Under the pieces are notes generated by a model. It was not told where the DNA came from and made no database searches. It worked only from the letters and a program-made list of their open reading frames with translations. Positions 8,398-16,168 of a stretch of 64,000 bases of DNA are shown one piece after another. A program made the position numbers and the translations under genes. The stretch covers positions 4,512,001-4,576,000 of the forward strand of contig OY969763.1 of NCBI GenBank assembly GCA_963702845.1, written 5' to 3'. The stretch's first letter is position 1. Each line of letters opens with the position of its first letter. This DNA is from an uncultured Verrucomicrobiae bacterium (GTDB taxonomy: Bacteria > Verrucomicrobiota > Verrucomicrobiia > Limisphaerales > Palsa-1400).

Positions 8398-9834
8398 TTA
8401 GTGATGGCCACCGCCTCCACCTCCGTGGCCGCCTCCGCCTCCGCCACCCATGTGGCCTCCTCCTCCGCCGAAGCCTCCGCCGCCACCGCCATGGCCTCCA
8501 GAGAAACCGCCACCGTGCATTCCGCCCCCAAAACCTCCACCGTGGCTGAACGCTGATGCTGACGGGCTTCCTGCAAATGCGCGGGATCCGCCGAAGGACG
8601 ACGCGCTCGGCCGCGACATGCTCGAAAAGCCGCCGCTGCTCAATGCACTGTGCCCCGCAAAAGCACTGCGACTGGCGAAGGTTGAACCGTGTCCACCAAA
8701 CATCTGGCTGGTGTTTCCGCTGTGTGCTGAATTGATTCCGCGGTTCATCCAAGCTGCCTGGTTCCCGCTGTGGAGAGCTGTGCGAGATCCGGACGGATCA
8801 ACCATCCTGCTTCCTGTGCTGGCGACAGCGCCATTTGCACTGCGAGCGAAAGTTCCATTCTGTCCACGAACCACAGTCCCATTCGCGCCGTGGGCAATCG
8901 CCCCATTTTGACCGCGTGCGAAAGTTCCATTCGCGCCGTGAACTATTGCATTGTTCATCGACCTTGTGCTGCCATTGAAGCCATTGTTGTGGCCACCGTT
9001 GTGCACGAAGTCGCTGTGGGTATTGTTAAAACCGTGTCCGTGGAAGTTCCCATTATTATGGAAGTTCCCATTATTATTATGGTTGTGACCATCGTGGTTG
9101 TGATTGTCATGGTTATGATTATTATTTCCGAAGAAGAAATTGAAGCCGAACGGGAATCCCCATCCGCCCCAGCCCCAACCGGAATTCCAGCCCCATCCTC
9201 CCCATCCTCCCCAGCCCCACCATGGATAATAGTCGGGGGAGTACGATGCGTAGTAAGGATAGTAAGGCGTGTATCCGTAACCGCCATCGGTATACCCGTA
9301 GCCGCCGTCGCTTGGATAGGCACTTGGATAGGCGTTGTAGATGTTATTTTGATCACCAGGAGTGGTCGGTTCTGTCGGGGCATATCCGTTAGTCGAATAA
9401 TCCGGTGCTTGCGCCCCGGCGGCTTGCGCTTGTTGGACTTGTTGCGCCTGGATCGCTTGCATCGCCTGGAGCGATTGGCGCGCCTGCGTGACGCGATCGC
9501 TCTCGAGCATCGCCGCAACAGTGTCGTTCGGCACACCCACTTTGTTCAAGTAAATGATGTCATCGGCCGTGAGGCTGAAACGCTGGCCGGACGTTTCGGC
9601 GTATCCTTTCACGACTTCAGGAGCGGTGCCGGCCTGCTGAAGTTTGATGATTTCTTTGGCGCCAACGGACAGGTCTACTGGCGCTGGCAACGCGGTTGCC
9701 GCAGCCGGTTGAGCGACCGTGGTCTGGGTTGAGGGTGTTACGGCGGGGGCGGGGTCAGCTTGGACTGCGAGGGCGGTCAGGCTGAACAGCGTCAGGATCC
9801 CGCTCACCAAATGGGTTGTAAGCGAGTTTTTCAT
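8398..9834 (-). CDS. Secreted protein with a small helical domain and a long Tyr/Trp/Gly/Asn/His low-complexity tail
   Basis: GGAGG RBS before ATG 9834; signal peptide; domain IIKLQQAG...LTADDIIYLNKVGVPNDTVAAML; Gly-rich C-terminus. Confidence 0.8.
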   Translation of the reverse strand: MKNSLTTHLVSGILTLFSLTALAVQADPAPAVTPSTQTTVAQPAAATALPAPVDLSVGAKEIIKLQQAGTAPEVVKGYAETSGQRFSLTADDIIYLNKVGVPNDTVAAMLESDRVTQARQSLQAMQAIQAQQVQQAQAAGAQAPDYSTNGYAPTEPTTPGDQNNIYNAYPSAYPSDGGYGYTDGGYGYTPYYPYYASYSPDYYPWWGWGGWGGWGWNSGWGWGGWGFPFGFNFFFGNNNHNHDNHNHDGHNHNNNGNFHNNGNFHGHGFNNTHSDFVHNGGHNNGFNGSTRSMNNAIVHGANGTFARGQNGAIAHGANGTVVRGQNGTFARSANGAVASTGSRMVDPSGSRTALHSGNQAAWMNRGINSAHSGNTSQMFGGHGSTFASRSAFAGHSALSSGGFSSMSRPSASSFGGSRAFAGSPSASAFSHGGGFGGGMHGGGFSGGHGGGGGGFGGGGGHMGGGGGGGHGGGGGGHH

Positions 9835-9953
9835 TTCGGCCTCCAAATAAACCTACGACGGAATTGGGTAAGCGGAAGGGGTGATTTTTTACTGTTGAGT
9901 TGGCCTCCCGGTTGGGTGCTGCTTGTCGACTTGGTGAAGTCACGACATCATTG

Positions 9954-10931
9954 TTAACGATGGCCGCCACCGCCGCCGTGTCCACCGCCGCCGCCGTGAA
10001 AGGCCATTCCGCCGTGACCTGCGCTATGGGCACCACTGACCGCGCCGTGCGTCGCCATCGAGCCGTCAAAGGATTGATGCGGCATCGAGCTTACGTGACC
10101 GGTGAAGTGATTGTTGAAGCCGTTGTGATGTACGAAGTTGTTTCGATGGTTATTGAAACCATGACGGTGCCCATTGAAGCCGAAGGTATCGAAGCCAAAG
10201 CCAAACGGGACGCCCCATCCCCAGCCCCAAGGAGCATTGTAGTAATCAACGTAGTCGCCGTCGTCGGTGTAGCCTCCGTAATACGGGTTGCCGTCGGCGT
10301 CGTAGTTGTTGGGCATGGACGATGGTTCGGCAGGCATCGCTGAGGAGTCGGAGCTATAGCCTTCGTCGGGATAGGAGTAGTAATATGGATAGCCACTTTC
10401 GCTGTAGCCTTGGGGCTGCGGGTCCGTCGAGGTCAAGTCAGAGTAAGTCGGCGTTTGCCTTGGTGCGGCTGCGCCAGCTTCTTCTGTTTGGATTTCTGCT
10501 TGCTCGGCAGCGACACGATCGCGAGCGGTGCGGTCGCGCATGAGCATTGCGTGGATGGTGTCCTGCGGCAGGCCGAGTTTGCTCAGGTAAAGAATATCGT
10601 CGGCACTGATGCTGTAGAGGTCATCGGAGGCTTGGACGTAGTCGGTCAGCAGTTTTGGGCTGGTGCCGGATTGGAACAGTTTGATGACCTGCTTTGTCGC
10701 GCTGGTTAGATCAGTCGGCGCACCCGCGCCCGGCGGCAGAGGTGGGGCCACTGCAACGCTGGGATTATTGGGCACCTGTGGAACATCCACAGCGCTCGTT
10801 GGGTCCGGTGGTTGGCTGGTGTTCGAGGCGCTGGGCGGTTCGGCGCGCAGTGCGAGTGGGAATTCCAATGTCAATGCGACGAGCAGGGCTGAGGTCCCGC
10901 TCACCATCCTGGATGGTAGCGAGGTTTTCAT
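9954..10931 (-). CDS. Paralog of 8398..9834
   Basis: VIKLFQSG...ISADDILYLSKLGLPQDTIHAML; WGWGWGVPFGFGF; ends GGGHGGGGGHR. Confidence 0.8.
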   Translation of the reverse strand: MKTSLPSRMVSGTSALLVALTLEFPLALRAEPPSASNTSQPPDPTSAVDVPQVPNNPSVAVAPPLPPGAGAPTDLTSATKQVIKLFQSGTSPKLLTDYVQASDDLYSISADDILYLSKLGLPQDTIHAMLMRDRTARDRVAAEQAEIQTEEAGAAAPRQTPTYSDLTSTDPQPQGYSESGYPYYYSYPDEGYSSDSSAMPAEPSSMPNNYDADGNPYYGGYTDDGDYVDYYNAPWGWGWGVPFGFGFDTFGFNGHRHGFNNHRNNFVHHNGFNNHFTGHVSSMPHQSFDGSMATHGAVSGAHSAGHGGMAFHGGGGGHGGGGGHR

Positions 10932-11238
10932 GATTAAACCTAAGGCCATTTGGCAATGGCGCTAGGTGCAATCGTATGCTGATTTTGACGTGAGTCGCAT
11001 GGCGAAGGATGTGCTTGATGAAAGTGGGACTCCCACCCTTCCAGGGGGTTTTGACCGAAGGCCCGACCCCGCAATTATCGTGAGCTTAACTAAGTGCCAT
11101 TCGGGTCGGTTCTTAGTATTGACAACATTTAGTCATTACAAAAAATTTGAAAGGGCCTGCTGGGTCAAAGAGCTCGGCCGAGCATTCGCAAACGATATTT
11201 TTTGTCGCTTAGCTGGGGAACTGTTTTATTCTCGCGCC

Positions 11239-12081
11239 GTGAAACTTCCCGTTTTGCGATTTATCCTGGTGTTCCTGTTTTTGGGCCTGATTTCGGTTTG
11301 CCCCGGCGCGGATGCACCGGCATGGAGGGAGCGCCCATGGAAGCTTGTTTGGCACGATGAATTTGATGGCCACAAGCTGGATAGCGGCAAATGGAATGTC
11401 CTCATTCGCGAGCAAAGCAAGCACACCGAGCTTCAGTATTATCTGCCCGACGAAGTTTATGTGGAGAAAGGCTGTCTGCATCTACGGAGCGAGCAGCGGG
11501 ATTTTGGTTCACAGCATTTCACGAGTGGGCGAATAGACACGAGCGGAAAATTCGCGCCGGTCTATGGCCGGTTTGAGATCCGCGGGAAGCTGCCCGGGGG
11601 AAAAGGATTGTGGCCGGCGTATTGGCTCTATCCGCAGAATCGCGATTGGGCGATGGAGCGTCTCATGGCGCAAGCGATAACCAACGGCCTGGAGAGATTG
11701 ATCCCCGAGGCGCGCCCTTGGTATTCGGAAATTGATATCATGGAATATCTCGGGGACCGAACCAACATCGTTTATGGAACACTGAACTACTACACATTTG
11801 ACGGCGTGAAGAAAGCGAGCGCGGGGAAATTCAAAGCGGGTATTGATCTGTCAAAGGATTTTCACATCTATGCGCTGGAATGGGAACCGGACCAAATCCG
11901 GTGGTATGTCGATGGCAAATTGTATCACTCCACCACCAATGGGATACCGCACGCGCCGCGTTATTTGATTCTGAACACGGCAGTAGGTGGGAAGTGGCCG
12001 GGCAATCCCGATGCAACAACGACTTTCCCGCAATTTCACGATATTGATTACGTTCGAGTTTACCAACGAAAGACGTTTTGA
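11239..12081 (+). CDS. Glycoside hydrolase family 16 (laminarinase-like), secreted
   Basis: WKLVWHDEFDG, GLWPAYW, catalytic EIDIME, DYVRVYQ; signal peptide from GTG 11239. Confidence 0.9.
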   Translation: MKLPVLRFILVFLFLGLISVCPGADAPAWRERPWKLVWHDEFDGHKLDSGKWNVLIREQSKHTELQYYLPDEVYVEKGCLHLRSEQRDFGSQHFTSGRIDTSGKFAPVYGRFEIRGKLPGGKGLWPAYWLYPQNRDWAMERLMAQAITNGLERLIPEARPWYSEIDIMEYLGDRTNIVYGTLNYYTFDGVKKASAGKFKAGIDLSKDFHIYALEWEPDQIRWYVDGKLYHSTTNGIPHAPRYLILNTAVGGKWPGNPDATTTFPQFHDIDYVRVYQRKTF

Positions 12082-12250
12082 CTGTCGTGCACGTGTCAGT
12101 CCCAACTGGCCAAGTGACAAGTGATGGGGCTGACATATGCACCGCAGAAATTCCCGCCTTTGCCAGCATTTCCATTATAGGACGAACACATTTGTTCGCC
12201 CATCCCAATATCCGGTTTTAAACTGTCAACTAAGCGCTACGTTGCGCCGT

Positions 12251-12418
12251 ATGAAGACATTATTCTTAGTTCTATGGGCGGCAGCTTTAATGGGTTGCTG
12301 CCATACGAATCCCTGCGGAAGAACCGCTTGCCAACCAGTGCGCCGTTGCCCGACGGCAAGTTGTTGTCACCAGCAGCCGTGCAGCGTGGACGGTTTTAGT
12401 GCCTGTATATATAAATGA
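12251..12418 (+). CDS. Small Cys-rich putative lipopeptide 1 (55 aa, 9 Cys)
   Basis: MKTLFLVLWAAALMG-CCHTNPCGRTACQPVRRCPTASCCHQQPCSVDGFSACIYK; paralogy with 12701. Confidence 0.7.
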   Translation: MKTLFLVLWAAALMGCCHTNPCGRTACQPVRRCPTASCCHQQPCSVDGFSACIYK

Positions 12419-12700
12419 ATCGGGGCAGGCGCTGTAGCAAAGAAACAGCCCGGCTTCGCAATTTTAACGAACAACCTTAATAGGTGCCGCGGCTCTGGCC
12501 CTGTGCAATCGCCAGAAACGTTGGTTATCCACGCCACGAAGAGGCACAAAAACTCGAGATGTTGGCGCGAGTTTCAGTTCTAGCGCCCCCAGCCTACAAA
12601 AAGCAAAATCCTGTCATTCTTTCCCCTAAGCGCGAACACTTTTGTTGCCTATGCTGCTATCGGGTTTCGCAACCGGCAAAGAGCGCTAGGTTGCGGGCTT

Positions 12701-12925
12701 ATGAAAACATTATTGTTAACCTTGGGCGCGGCGGCCTTGATGGGCTGCTGCGGTAGTCGACACAGTTGCGGGACGACTGCTTCCGTAAGTCCTTGCTCGT
12801 CTACTGCAATGGAACCTGCAGGCGCTAGCACGCAACCTGTGAGCGTCAGCACGATTACCTGGCAAGCCGTGCCTCCTTGCTCGACTAGCGGGAATGCGTT
12901 GCCTTGTTATACTCCGGCTAAATGA
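12701..12925 (+). CDS. Small Cys-rich putative lipopeptide 2 (74 aa, 6 Cys)
   Basis: MKTLLLTLGAAALMG-CCGSRHSC...; same leader and upstream region as 12251. Confidence 0.72.
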   Translation: MKTLLLTLGAAALMGCCGSRHSCGTTASVSPCSSTAMEPAGASTQPVSVSTITWQAVPPCSTSGNALPCYTPAK

Positions 12926-12993
12926 AGCAGCAGGCGCGTCGACGACGAAATGGAAATCTGACTCTTCGTGCTAAACAGCCTTTAGCGTAAGAA

Positions 12994-13115
12994 ACGTATT
13001 CTTAACATTGGCGCGTGGTCGCCCGTTCGTACACGACGAGGCCAAAGGGCACGTCAACGGAGATCGCCAAGCGACCCCCCTCCTACGCGGGGTGGCCGCG
13101 TGCTAATGCGTATGT
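12994..13115 (+). ncRNA. Candidate structured RNA, family unrecognised
   Basis: 13006-13024 pairs 19/19 with 13090-13108 using five G-U pairs, enclosing two hairpins. Confidence 0.4.
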
Positions 13116-13286
13116 CAAGTGTCATTCATTAGGGCGCTTGTCAACAGAGACAAAACGTTGCTGTCCTCAATGTTCAAATTGAGTTCTCTTTCGCTGCGAT
13201 TTTTACAAGTTGCGCGGCGATAGGTGGCTTCGTGGTCGCCCATGACGTAGCCTTTGGCTGGGCGTAAACGAGTTGGGCGGCCGAGT

Positions 13287-13436
13287 TTAGGCGACGGCGA
13301 CGGCGGCGAGCTTTTTGTAATGCGCCCGCAGTCTGGGGATCACGTAAAACTGGGCGACGCCGACGACGAGGACTCCAACACCGATGTGCTGCATAGACGC
13401 CGTGCAGGCGACTACAACTCCTTCCAATGCTTTCAC
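13287..13436 (-). CDS. Small hydrophobic protein (49 aa)
   Basis: Below the ORF-track cutoff: MKALEGVVVACTASMQHIGVGVLVVGVAQFYVIPRLRAHYKKLAAVAVA; genome-typical gtc/gcc codons. Confidence 0.45.
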   Translation of the reverse strand: MKALEGVVVACTASMQHIGVGVLVVGVAQFYVIPRLRAHYKKLAAVAVA

Positions 13437-13628
13437 TCTTTTATCGCGGACGTCCAAGAGAGCGCGAAAACAAAATGATTATTGAGTCTTTTTTCCCGGC
13501 GTTCAAAAGCCAACTTCGGCCGCGCAATCCTGCTATTTTCATTCTGTCCCTCCGGGCGTTTGGTTTGAGCATCGAGAGCGCGCGAAAGTAAAAGGCATGT
13601 TGGTCACGTCAGCACTGACGGGCACTGA

Positions 13629-13656
13629 CGGCGCGCGCGGAGCGACGCGCCCCTAC
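13629..13656 (-). repeat. GTAG-family REP (same family as the RAYT-flanking REPs)
   Basis: cggcgcgcgcggagcgacgcgcccctac matches 50700-50727 and 51324-51352. Confidence 0.8.
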
Positions 13657-13920
13657 TTAGGGGCCTGGGTTTTGCCGGCTCGGGATGTTTCCAGTCAGAG
13701 CGGTAGGGACGGCGGAGGAGGCGGGTGAAAGAAGGCGACGGTTGAGTGTTGAGCGGCAGGGTTCCGTTTCATCCGATATTCATCGAATTTTTCCGTATTA
13801 ATTTATTTATATACATATTTGCCGCTCGTTTGCTAAGGTGTCGCCACTTCCAAAACCCATGGGATCAGAGATGTCGTGTCATCTCCGATAAACTTAAACT
13901 TAAACGTAGAAAGTTAGCCC

Positions 13921-15453
13921 ATGAAACATCCGTCCAAACTCTGCAGCATTGCCTGTCAGAAAATAAAAAGAACCCACATCCGATCGATGACGGCCATTGT
14001 CGCATTGATCTGTTGCACCACACACGCCGGCGCCCGTCCACTTGGCGTTGACGTCTCGTCCTTTCAAGGCTCGGTCACGTGGTCGAGTGTGAAAGCCGCT
14101 GGCGTCACTTACGCGTGGGCGAAAGCCACTGAAGGTGTCACGCTCAATGACTCGACTTTCGCCGGCAACCAAAACAACGGCAAGGCGGCCGGTCTTTACA
14201 TGGGCGCGTATCATTTTGCGCGGCCCGGAAACAACAGTCCCGGCTCGGAGTCCAGTCACTTCTGGAGCATCGCCAATCCTTACATCCTCGCCGATGGCAA
14301 AACCTTTATGCCGGTGCTTGATTTCGAGGATTTCTCCGGCCATGTCAGCGCGACGTCGTTTTCCGATTGGGCCAATCAATGGTGCAACACGATCAAGAAC
14401 AACGCGACCGGCACGGGGCTTTCGGTCACGCCTGTGTTTTACACGAGCTCTTGCTCCGCGTGTAATTTCACGACTTCGATCGCATCCTGGACTCCGTGGC
14501 TGGCAAATTACAACGGGCTGGATTCGCAAACGGGCAATCCCTGGAACATTTGCACGGGCTGCGAAGTCTGGGGCGCGGGCGTTTGGAATGTCTGGCAATA
14601 CACCTCGAGCGGTTCTGTTTCCGGCATTTCCGGCAATGTCGATCGCGATGTTTATAACGGCAGCACCATCTCTGCGGCGACGGCGAAACTTCTCGTAAAA
14701 AGCACATTCGGGGGCACCAGTGTTGGTTATTATAATCCCGCGGATGGCACGTATCATCTGCGCAACTCGCTGAGTTTTGGCCCGTCAGATTACGCGTGGA
14801 TTGCCTACACCCCGCCGCCGTCTGGAATTATTCCTGTGACCGGCGATTGGGATGGTAACCATCAGACCAGCACTGGTTATTACAACCCGGCCGACGGCTC
14901 ATACCATTTGAAAGACGCGCTGGATTCCGGATCATCAGACTACGCCTGGGTCGCTTACAGCCCGCCGACCGCCGGAATCATTCCGGTGACTGGCGATTGG
15001 GACGGCGACGGCAAGACCGGCGTCGGCTACTACAATCCTGCTGACGGCAGTTTTCATTTGAAAAACACGCTCGGCGTCGGCCCTTCCGATTACGCGTTCG
15101 TGTTCGGCCCGCCTAATATGGTTCCGCTGACCGGCGACTGGGATGGCAATGGCGCATGGGGCATCGGCTATTACAATCCGGCCGACGGCACTGTGCACTT
15201 GCGCGATGCGTTGAGCGCCGGGCCTTCTGATTACATCTTCACGTTTATTTCCACGCCGAATTCGTCCTACAAAATTATTACGGGCGATTGGAATGCGGAT
15301 CACAGGACGAGCATCGGCTATTACAACCCGGGCGACGGCAGTTATCATTTGCGCAACTCGCTGAGCGCCGGGCCTTCTGATTACGCCTGGGTTGCTTACA
15401 ATCCGCCCACGGCAGGCATCATTCCTGTAACTGGCGACTGGGACGCACAATAA
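13921..15453 (+). CDS. GH25 muramidase (lysozyme) with five C-terminal GDWDG repeats
   Basis: GVDVSSFQG, AKATEG, GAYHFA, LDFE, WQYTSSG, VDRD; five ~50-aa repeats GYYNPADGxxHL...TGDWDG. Confidence 0.88.
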   Translation: MKHPSKLCSIACQKIKRTHIRSMTAIVALICCTTHAGARPLGVDVSSFQGSVTWSSVKAAGVTYAWAKATEGVTLNDSTFAGNQNNGKAAGLYMGAYHFARPGNNSPGSESSHFWSIANPYILADGKTFMPVLDFEDFSGHVSATSFSDWANQWCNTIKNNATGTGLSVTPVFYTSSCSACNFTTSIASWTPWLANYNGLDSQTGNPWNICTGCEVWGAGVWNVWQYTSSGSVSGISGNVDRDVYNGSTISAATAKLLVKSTFGGTSVGYYNPADGTYHLRNSLSFGPSDYAWIAYTPPPSGIIPVTGDWDGNHQTSTGYYNPADGSYHLKDALDSGSSDYAWVAYSPPTAGIIPVTGDWDGDGKTGVGYYNPADGSFHLKNTLGVGPSDYAFVFGPPNMVPLTGDWDGNGAWGIGYYNPADGTVHLRDALSAGPSDYIFTFISTPNSSYKIITGDWNADHRTSIGYYNPGDGSYHLRNSLSAGPSDYAWVAYNPPTAGIIPVTGDWDAQ

Positions 15454-15595
15454 AATTCGCGGCCATCGCGCTCACAAATTAGCGCCACAAAAAAATCGCG
15501 GGAATGCTGCTGCACGACCGCCTCTCAGTTTTTCCTAGATAAAAATCAGAGAGACCACCGATTGTCGGCGCAACGATTTCATCGGTTTGTACTTT

Positions 15596-15844
15596 ATGAA
15601 AAGTCATATCATGATTGGGTTGATGGCAACCGGGTTAATAGCCGGTTGTTCCACGTCAAAAGTACAGTATAGCGACCTGCCTGCCCCGGTGCAGAATACC
15701 CTTCGAAACCAGTGTCACAATGCGCAGATCGCCAAAATCGAGAAAGAAAAGCATCACGGCTGTCCCGTTTATGAAGTTGAATTCTGTGCACCGGGAAAGA
15801 ATCCCAAAGTGCACATCAATCCGGATGGAACGATTGTAGACTGA
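15596..15844 (+). CDS. PepSY-like domain lipoprotein
   Basis: Lipobox IAGC; DLPAPVQNTL...IEKE...YEVEF...INPDG. Confidence 0.75.
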   Translation: MKSHIMIGLMATGLIAGCSTSKVQYSDLPAPVQNTLRNQCHNAQIAKIEKEKHHGCPVYEVEFCAPGKNPKVHINPDGTIVD

Positions 15845-16168
15845 TAACGTAGAAAATAAATTTCACTTGTAGCGGTGGCCGAAGAAACGCTCCGAAGCAC
15901 GAGCGAATCATTTCTCACGCGTCTGCAGCAGTGAGGTGTGATGGGCCACCGCCTGTAAGACCTCGTTCTCCGAGGCCGACCCTAGTCAACAATCAGGACT
16001 TGGCCGGCGCAACATCGGTCATCGCTAAGTCCATGGTCAAACGAAACAAAATCCGGTCTCAAACGAGGAAAACTCGAAAAGAAGAATTACGAACATTTGC
16101 GCAAAGATTTGACGCCACACGATTAGGGACTTTAAGGTCAGTCCATCCATGGTACAAAGAAGTAAGCG

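Follow-up and report, generated by a model that had tools for sequence, protein, structure and literature searches.

The 64,000-nt stretch analyzed here (the window; contig OY969763.1, from an uncultured Verrucomicrobiae bacterium of the Palsa-1400 lineage) carries two small open reading frames (ORFs) in tandem, whose products are referred to as peptide 1 and peptide 2. We consider it probable that these are paralogous lipoprotein genes of the signal peptidase II (SPII) type, each with its own upstream region, and that their products are disulfide bonded in the cell envelope. A conserved noncoding element precedes both ORFs and occurs once more in the genome, in front of a gene for a member of a small, uncharacterized lipoprotein family, here called the NEPAGA family. 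Peptides 1 and 2 are a genus-restricted offshoot of that family and not a new kind of system. The leader and the upstream DNA are better conserved than the product, and the mature parts evolve fast.

Tandem lipoprotein genes and their upstream element

The two ORFs start exactly 450 nt apart, which is the spacing reported in an earlier note made from the letters of the window, and the cysteine counts given there (9 Cys in 55 amino acids versus 6 Cys in 74 amino acids) hold for both ORFs as described. Peptide 1 starts with MKTLFLVLWAAALMGCC (whole peptide, MKTLFLVLWAAALMGCCHTNPCGRTACQPVRRCPTASCCHQQPCSVDGFSACIYK) and has cysteines at positions 16, 17, 22, 27, 33, 38, 39, 44, and 52. Its lipobox leader, MKTLFLVLWAAALMG, is followed by the lipid-attachment Cys, from which a mature part of 40 amino acids with 8 further Cys extends; in the window genome, this part is 20% Cys and also contains 2 His. 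Peptide 2, with the N terminus MKTLLLTLGAAALMGCC and cysteines at positions 16, 17, 23, 32, 60, and 69, has the lipobox leader MKTLLLTLGAAALMG in front of its Cys and then the motifs CGTTA and MEPAGAS. An internal 21-nt repeat in its gene (12783-12803 and 12867-12887) encodes xVxPCSxx twice. Reading LMG-C as a lipobox fits both leaders (MK-TLFLVLWAAA-LMG-C and MK-TLLLTLGAAA-LMG-C), which combine a basic n-region, a hydrophobic h-region, and the terminal Cys. The products are predicted to be exported, cleaved, and lipid anchored at Cys16. The genome encodes one match to LspA (PF01252; E = 5e-33), two to Lgt (PF01790; E = 8.5e-72 and 1.8e-48), and three DsbA-like thioredoxin-fold proteins (Thioredoxin_4); VKOR was not found in it. 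Among 134 small ORFs of the genome with a lipobox pattern, peptide 1 is the richest in Cys; most of the others look spurious.

The two units were compared segment by segment, with global alignment scores set against those of 300 shuffles. The best-conserved segment is the leader that had been noticed as shared, with identity at 40 of 52 positions over codons 1 to 17 (z = 9.6; 0 of 300 shuffles as good). It is followed by the 100 nt upstream of the start (positions -100 to -1; 65 of 103 columns identical, z = 7.2, 0 of 300), so that the similarity of the upstream DNA is real but reaches over about 100 nt, further than the approximately 70 bp first proposed. The mature parts diverge as strongly as had been described (z = 2.5; 4 of 300), and the common 3' boundary that was also claimed, from the stop codon to +40, comes out as a weak, marginal similarity (2 of 300). 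No similarity was detected in the next 100 nt upstream (z = 0.5; 95 of 300) or downstream (z = 1.5; 29 of 300). Because of these segment scores and the flanks without similarity, the boundary of the units is real at the 5' side and marginal at the 3' side. The hairpin 3' of peptide 1 is likely a terminator: it has a z score of -2.1, with 7 of 200 shuffles folding as well, and its DNA is conserved in the alignment of orthologues regardless of the reading frame. A simple terminator scan did not list it.

The upstream element is made up of four conserved blocks, in the order CCAGCnTTTCCAyTA, GACGAACAnTTTTGTyG, TCnGGTTT..AAAC, and yTACnTTG, the last of which ends 6 to 8 nt before the ATG across copies. 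Unit 1 has a perfect dyad, CGAACA-N4-TGTTCG, at 12183-12198, and unit 2 has an imperfect one, CGAACA-N4-TGTTGC, within 12632-12649. The proximal blocks of unit 1 are GGTTT..AAAC at 12214-12223 and TACGTTG at 12238-12244, which ends 6 nt before the ATG; taken together, the last two blocks read AAC-N16-(C/G)GTT(G). A search of the 6.03-Mb window genome, a single contig, with an nhmmer profile of the element returned exactly three copies (E = 2.4e-26 for unit 1, 2.4e-24, and 4e-21 for unit 2), the next match having an E value of 0.12. The element also precedes members of the family outside the set used to build the profile (L041, E = 7.6e-18; L037, E = 2.8e-13). A sequence-only covariance model of the element, R1, which scores 84.4 bits on unit 1 and 71.4 bits on unit 2, gave matches in 3 of the 31 genomes from the taxonomic family, each of them belonging to the genus of the window genome: three matches in the window genome (G000) and two in each of the other two genomes of the genus, G001 and G002. 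Across 151 sampled genomes of the order, R1 matched G000 only, under stricter filters and in a sample without G001 and G002, a result that does not imply absence. Between orthologues, the 90 nt upstream diverge less (K of 0.15 to 0.24) than synonymous sites do (dS of 0.37 to 0.61), which indicates that the noncoding element is itself under purifying selection.

Weak nhmmer matches (E values of 0.12 to 3) were rejected as further copies, as they represent an unrelated repeat or lie inside genes. An intergenic repeat of about 95 nt (GCCTGCCGATTTGGAAATCGGCGATA...GAACAAATTATTTTG...CCGGTTTGGAAACCTGCGATACGG) is present in two copies in the window genome, at C1:1840101-1840177 and 2298220-2298293; one copy lies just upstream of an Lgt gene region, and the two perhaps belong to a small dispersed repeat family.

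We infer that the shared upstream DNA combines a promoter with the operator-like dyad CGAACA-N4-TGTTCG and that, through this common element, a single signal would govern all three genes. The core promoter would then consist of the proximal blocks, with a start point at or next to the ATG, and the dyad, about 60 to 70 nt upstream, would be the site of a regulator. Because the arrangement AAC-16 nt-CGTT/GTTG ends 6 to 8 nt before the ATG and no Shine-Dalgarno-like sequence precedes either ORF, the spacing suggests a leaderless mRNA or one with a very short leader. A simple scan for sigma-70 promoters between 11900 and 13400 gave 0 promoter-like sites, and a sigma-54 reading was dropped, since the GG of the -24 box was not seen in the element by eye. 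An extracytoplasmic function (ECF)-type promoter was considered as well; the loose pattern AAC-N16-CGTT stands before 4 of 43 Sigma70_r2 genes, with about 3 expected, and because it is not enriched before sigma factor genes, no cognate sigma factor can be named. The dyad GAACA-N4-TGTTC, whose half sites are Cheo-box-like, was also rejected as a LexA/SOS box, there being only 14 exact sites genome-wide, about the chance level, with no regulon pattern. The PF01726 matches in the genome are two small helix-turn-helix (HTH) genes, with no canonical LexA among them. Two paralogous HTH genes of the LexA_DNA_bind type are located 2 kb apart at G000:C1 1989.3-1990.1 and 1991.3-1992.1 kb; they have near-identical upstream DNA (TTGTACAAAAT...CTGGCAATGTGTGC) and no S24 peptidase domain in the frames read. 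At the RNA level, Rfam had 0 matches in 11000-14500 (E <= 1), and RNAalifold predicted for the element only a 7-bp hairpin of -3.5 kcal/mol, with a double change at 1 pair, which is a weak signal.

The NEPAGA family and the orthologues of peptide 1

The gene preceded by the third copy of the element encodes a Ser/Gly/Asn-rich lipoprotein of 91 amino acids, MKKLLLIVGAAALAAC...NCGTTMNEPAGA...RDMNQQPYPG...LNQQRGTGS...NP. This protein is publicly recorded with 65 amino acids only (P0026), starting at the internal Met of MNEPAGA, and because the record starts there, its signal peptide was missed by the gene call. The well-conserved family of Verrucomicrobiota to which it belongs (NEPAGA...RDxNQQPYPG...LNQQRGSGS...NP; alignment A5) has 28 relatives among database proteins at E <= 0.1, all of them unnamed or annotated as "hypothetical protein" and one labelled Limisphaerales. 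In G000, G002, and a metagenome contig (L041), one or two N_methyl genes of the pseudopilin-like type come after the NEPAGA gene, as does a receiver-domain gene in convergent orientation, and this order is conserved. As the only one of the three with conserved neighbors and many database relatives, the third gene is likely the ancestor.

Profile comparisons with hhalign extend the homology among the three types beyond the lipobox, while their C-terminal halves do not align. Peptide 2 matches the NEPAGA family with a probability of 96.5%, up to residue 46 and including EPAGA; the peptide 1 family matches peptide 2 with 97.5%, up to residue 33 and through CGTTA..V..C, and the NEPAGA family with 95.8%, up to residue 26. 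Peptides 1 and 2 are like the NEPAGA family in their upstream element, in their leader, and in the early mature part, and when leader and motif are taken together as the mark of membership, peptide 2 has the motif (as MEPAGAS) and peptide 1 does not. They differ from the family in having gained Cys and in not lying beside the pseudopilin and receiver genes of the core members; in addition, the RDxNQQPYPG and LNQQRGSGS blocks and the C-terminal NP are absent from both. Peptide 2 keeps EPAGA and has CGTTA in common with peptide 1 and thus appears to stand between the latter and the parent family; peptide 1 is the most derived of the three types. The proposal that the two peptides belong to an unannotated family of disulfide-rich or metal-binding surface peptides was correct as to a real family with homologues elsewhere, but a Cys-rich core is not its defining trait: the more widely conserved NEPAGA members are rich in Ser, Gly, Asn, and Gln and have 0 to 2 Cys in their mature part. 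A further subfamily of small Ser-rich lipoproteins is represented in G001 (contig C300) by a tandem pair on the minus strand, L031:1870-2100 and L031:2162-2437, with the motifs ...VNEPSGS... and ...INEPAGS... and the terminal NP; their upstream region differs, one of them has a clear Shine-Dalgarno sequence, and their database relatives are P0014, P0017, and P0019.

Both ORFs had been placed in an unannotated family, and the searches agree. Their exact sequences are missing from a collection of 15 billion proteins, and neither is matched by Pfam, NCBIfam, or PHROG; a Pfam scan of both peptides with E values of up to 10 also gave no family. A profile of peptide 1 found no match in 5.8 billion clusters. 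Its sole match in 1.84 billion representatives (E = 5.8e-5), a protein of 1873 amino acids whose Cys- and Asp-rich repeats include DNCPTxSN, was judged to be due to chance and low complexity. For the third copy, the ESM Atlas returned only generic "putative lipoprotein" clusters, and a full-text literature search gave, among the papers listed, none on small Cys-rich lipoproteins of Verrucomicrobia.

Intact orthologues of peptide 1 were identified in G002 (E = 5.7e-21; 72% identity) and in G001 (E = 4.7e-16; 56% identity), the next best match among 41 genomes having an E value of 0.0027. The alignment of the three genes has no gap over 53 codons (159 nt); indels of 1 to 3 nt set in directly behind the 53rd codon and are seen upstream as well. 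C16, C22, C38, C44, and C52 are invariant, as is the block PC(S/A)VDGFSAC. The count of 8 Cys after the lipidated Cys, from which four possible disulfides had been derived, is thus valid in the window genome, but the orthologues have 5, of which 4 are invariant. Orthologues with conserved Cys exist for peptide 1; for peptide 2, no orthologue was found in G001 and G002. The four mature Cys that are invariant in the peptide 1 type are probably engaged in disulfides, and an odd number of Cys, as in peptide 2 and in both orthologues, suggests cross-links between molecules. At the lipobox, both paralogues in G000 have Cys-Cys at positions +1 and +2 (12296-12301 and 12746-12751) and both peptide 1 orthologues have Cys-Ala; this could be due to convergence or to a short gene conversion tract in G000.

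Homology between the genomes at the peptide 1 locus is limited to 12154-12471, and tblastx over 9000-16000 revealed no other gene shared between them. Since homology is confined to about 320 bp and the neighbors differ in each genome (Table 1), this unit, with its own promoter region and likely terminator, behaves as a self-contained, relocated gene.

Selection, expression, and possible roles of the products

Ratios of nonsynonymous to synonymous change (omega) were estimated by the method of Nei and Gojobori from the three peptide 1 sequences, separately for the leader and the mature part. The leader, which had been put forward as the conserved portion, is under purifying selection, with omega values of 0.11 to 0.44 between orthologues. 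In the paralogue leaders, the proportion of synonymous differences (pS) is 0.80 to 0.87, that is, saturated, and that of nonsynonymous differences (pN) is 0.12 to 0.16; hence, the leader is translated, and the duplications are old. For the mature part of peptide 1, omega is 0.33 and 0.43 in two of the three pairs.

With regard to expression, parts of the stretch are present in 11 soil or rhizosphere runs. In three metatranscriptome libraries from three studies, all 6 contig pieces fall within 12721-13072, which takes in the coding region of peptide 2 plus some 150 nt past it, and five DNA runs contributed 13 pieces that range over 11939-13285. One RNA-library piece of 198 nt is identical to the window, and one RNA-library contig extends from peptide 2 up to position 13072. 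Transcription of peptide 2 is weakly hinted at by these data, as the evidence consists of assembled contigs rather than reads, at a depth of 2 to 3, from libraries that may hold DNA; the contigs cover neither peptide 1 nor any 5' end, on which they say nothing either way. An RNA contig from run X9 matches the window from 12873 on, with the preceding 18 letters being different, and may stem from a related strain in which the middle part of peptide 2 is different.

Several observations weigh against the interpretation of the two ORFs as functional lipoprotein genes. The mature part of peptide 1 has an omega of 1.26 in the G000-G001 pair (0.9 overall) and must, because of this value, be weakly constrained or partly neutral; the variable sites of the orthologues are distributed nearly evenly over the codon positions (16, 17, and 21); the number of Cys after the lipid-attachment Cys varies (8 versus 5 and 5); and the C-terminal tails differ through frame changes. 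No orthologue of peptide 2 was found in G001 and G002, genomes that are 73% and 67% complete, and neither ORF nor any relative of peptide 1 is found among called proteins. AlphaFold2 predictions on three sequences had a pLDDT of 53.8, with no confident fold. Furthermore, the lipobox call rests on a PS51257-like PROSITE pattern, which both peptides match, the Pfam model LPAM_1 scores neither peptide, Shine-Dalgarno sequences are missing, and the RNA evidence has the limits given above. Most of these points would also be expected if the units were decaying or neutral duplicates, that is, if the promoter-leader module of a NEPAGA gene had been copied and the sequence after the leader were drifting, so that Cys richness is incidental. 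We nevertheless regard decay as unlikely. In three diverged genomes, the ORF has stayed intact and free of gaps over 159 nt; four Cys are invariant, and of the four codons that changed in the C-terminal PC(S/A)VDGFSAC block, three did so only synonymously. Omega is 0.33 to 0.43 in two of three pairs, and RNA-library contigs fall on peptide 2. Moreover, leader and element have been kept by selection although the synonymous sites of the paralogues are saturated, and duplicates of that age would have decayed.

The combination of conserved flanks and a divergent core could also be taken to mean that these are diversifying surface lipopeptides, in which a conserved launch module serves mature parts that are under diversifying selection through their contacts with other cells, phages, or predators, much like the Erp family of Borrelia or the variable lipoproteins of Mycoplasma. 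The Erp proteins of Borrelia burgdorferi (OspE/F-related, with an "upstream homology box") are the closest parallel in architecture: as described (PMC10016077), they have conserved promoter/operator DNA, a conserved lipoprotein leader, and conserved first mature residues, the rest being diverse, and they are coexpressed. Here, too, the upstream 100 nt and the leader are best conserved, the mature-part omega reaches 1.26, the neighbors in each genome are unrelated, peptide 2 has an internal repeat, and the X9 RNA contig departs from the window upstream of 12873. However, erp genes reside in many copies on cp32 prophage plasmids of a host-associated spirochete and recombine frequently, whereas here there are three chromosomal copies in a soil Verrucomicrobium, with mature products of 40 to 75 amino acids whose N termini are still homologous; no sequence relationship is expected. 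Diversification seems rather improbable to us, given that only three copies exist per genome, that no phase variation tract, recombinase, or silent cassettes were seen, that the omega value above 1 comes from a single pair with about 34 substitutions while the other pairs are below 0.45, and that the mature parts are homologous over their N-terminal third and not independent in origin.

A role in the buffering of soft periplasmic metals, as lipopeptides resembling metallothioneins or bufferins, would be in line with the Cys and His content of mature peptide 1 and with the operator-like dyad upstream, and exported Cys-containing peptides that handle copper exist, as described for the bufferins (PMC11626156). 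Yet neither peptide contains CxC or CxxC, the clustered arrangement looked for as the sign of a metallothionein, and no metallothionein model of Pfam matches. Only 4 mature Cys are conserved among the orthologues, where their number drops to 5, and the ancestral family has 0 to 2. No metal transporter or regulator adjoins the genes, and the family of oxidative enzymes that depend on multinuclear nonheme iron (MNIO; PF05114) has 0 matches in the single-contig genome at E <= 0.001 and none among the neighbors. We thus consider metal binding very unlikely.

The analogy that had been drawn with secreted toxins, defensin-like peptides, and precursors of peptides synthesized on ribosomes and modified posttranslationally (RiPPs) fares worse. 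A conserved leader with a variable Cys-rich core is what a RiPP precursor or secreted bacteriocin would show, and among MNIO-made products with signal peptides, namely bufferins and lipidated macrocyclic peptides, there are small exported Cys-containing precursors, including some with lipoprotein signal peptides (PMC11626156 and PMC13056109). The likeness ends with small exported Cys-containing products and a Sec or lipoprotein signal peptide; the defining enzyme, PF05114, was found neither beside the genes nor in the genome. As had been observed, no modifying enzyme is adjacent according to Pfam scans of the neighbors. Within about 10 kb on each side, Pfam and PHROG scans found no radical SAM, YcaO, lanthipeptide, or MNIO enzyme, no peptidase-ABC exporter or other transporter, no immunity gene, and no phage gene. 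The neighbors of the cassette differ per genome, and the leader is an ordinary Sec/SPII signal rather than the recognition sequence of a tailoring enzyme. A RiPP or toxin is highly improbable on these grounds. We give still less credence to phage-type, o-spanin-like lysis lipoproteins acting together with the GH25 muramidase encoded 1 kb downstream, a scenario that we find hardly credible. The o-spanins are small lipoproteins linked by disulfides, the GH25 protein matches endolysin families of PHROG, and the nearest Pfam-bearing ESM Atlas clusters of the third copy are Rz1, RzoQ, and phage lipoproteins, albeit at low scores (0.76 to 0.78). None of the three peptides, however, has a PHROG match at E <= 0.01; no i-spanin, holin, or other phage gene is nearby; the GH25 protein is a secreted multirepeat protein of 510 amino acids; and the peptide 1 orthologues have no GH25 neighbor.

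What remains the preferred reading is that of paralogous lipoproteins, likely held in the cell envelope by disulfide bonds, with a role that would be structural or protective, comparable in principle to that of chlamydial OmcA, and neither antibiotic nor RiPP-like. OmcA is described as a lipoprotein and part of the cysteine-rich outer membrane complex of Chlamydiae (PMC2811131). Peptide 1 may work like OmcA, with which it has in common the small size, the Cys richness, the (here predicted) lipoprotein nature, and the membership in the Planctomycetes-Verrucomicrobia-Chlamydiae (PVC) superphylum. Nonetheless, the Cys count is much less conserved here, and the neighbors are GH16 and GH25 genes without OmcB. 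The OmcA model (PF03503; Chlam_OMP3) matches neither the peptides (E of up to 10) nor the genome (E <= 1), and the best genome match to its partner OmcB (PF03504) has an E value of 0.9, below the cutoff, and is located elsewhere. A bolder version, which we hold to be quite doubtful, is that a promoter-operator-leader module launches fast-evolving lipopeptides from leaderless mRNAs under a dedicated stress regulator and that the Cys-rich ones are disulfide cross-linkers of the envelope, independent analogues of OmcA within the PVC group.

Gene callers routinely overlook small envelope lipopeptides of this kind, and the envelope biology of free-living PVC bacteria is poorly known. The genes described here add two or three real, uncalled small genes to a verrucomicrobial genome and define a family of tiny lipoproteins, restricted to the genus, whose promoter region and signal peptide are better conserved than the product. 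At present, this is a modest finding at the level of annotation, with no new mechanism. If envelope cross-linking or a specific stress response proves to be true, it would provide a handle on PVC envelope biology, and the element would be a ready-made reporter.

Features and neighboring genes

Table 1. Coordinates of the two units, of the third copy, and of the genes flanking peptide 1 (positions are those of the window unless a contig is given)
Feature	Location	Strand	Remarks
Conserved upstream element, unit 1	12154..12250	+	Alignments, nhmmer, same-genus homology from 12154
Peptide 1 gene	12251-12415, stop 12416-12418	+	55 aa, 9 Cys
Hairpin 3' of peptide 1 with short U-run	12421..12470 (hairpin 12421-12458)	+	-16.6 kcal/mol; likely terminator
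Conserved upstream element, unit 2	12600..12700	+	Alignments, nhmmer E = 4e-21
Peptide 2 gene	12701-12922, with stop to 12925	+	74 aa, 6 Cys
3' boundary weakly common to unit 1 (TAAATGAA...GCAGGCGC)	12917..12962	+	Alignment, z = 2.9
Third copy of the element	G000:C1:4797933-4798036		Outside the window; nhmmer profile
Third cassette gene	G000:C1:4798034-4798309 (L002:1501-1776)		Outside the window; 91-aa NEPAGA-type lipoprotein
Peptide 1 neighbors, G000	Window		GH16 and GH25
Peptide 1 neighbors, G001			RCC1/Ig-repeat protein and S1-domain gene
Peptide 1 neighbors, G002			TPR/PMT_2 protein and SBF transporter

Within about 10 kb of the two units, the window encodes glycoside hydrolases, RCC1 and CBM proteins, a CHASE2 kinase, and an ECF sigma factor. 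Peptide 2 is separated from the GH25 gene by about 1 kb (12940-13920) in which there is no ORF longer than 74 amino acids and no Rfam match. On the other side, the minus strand at 9954-10949 encodes a secreted-looking protein of 331 amino acids, without a Pfam or PHROG family, that has a Pro-rich N-terminal half and a Gly/His/Asn/Phe-rich tail ending in HGGGGGHGGGGGHR. The GH25 gene itself (13921-15453, plus strand) encodes a muramidase domain together with about five repeats of a unit of about 55 amino acids, GYYNPADGxxHLxxxL...DYxxxxxxP...PxTGDWD, and its match to phage endolysin families of PHROG runs through the GH25 part only.

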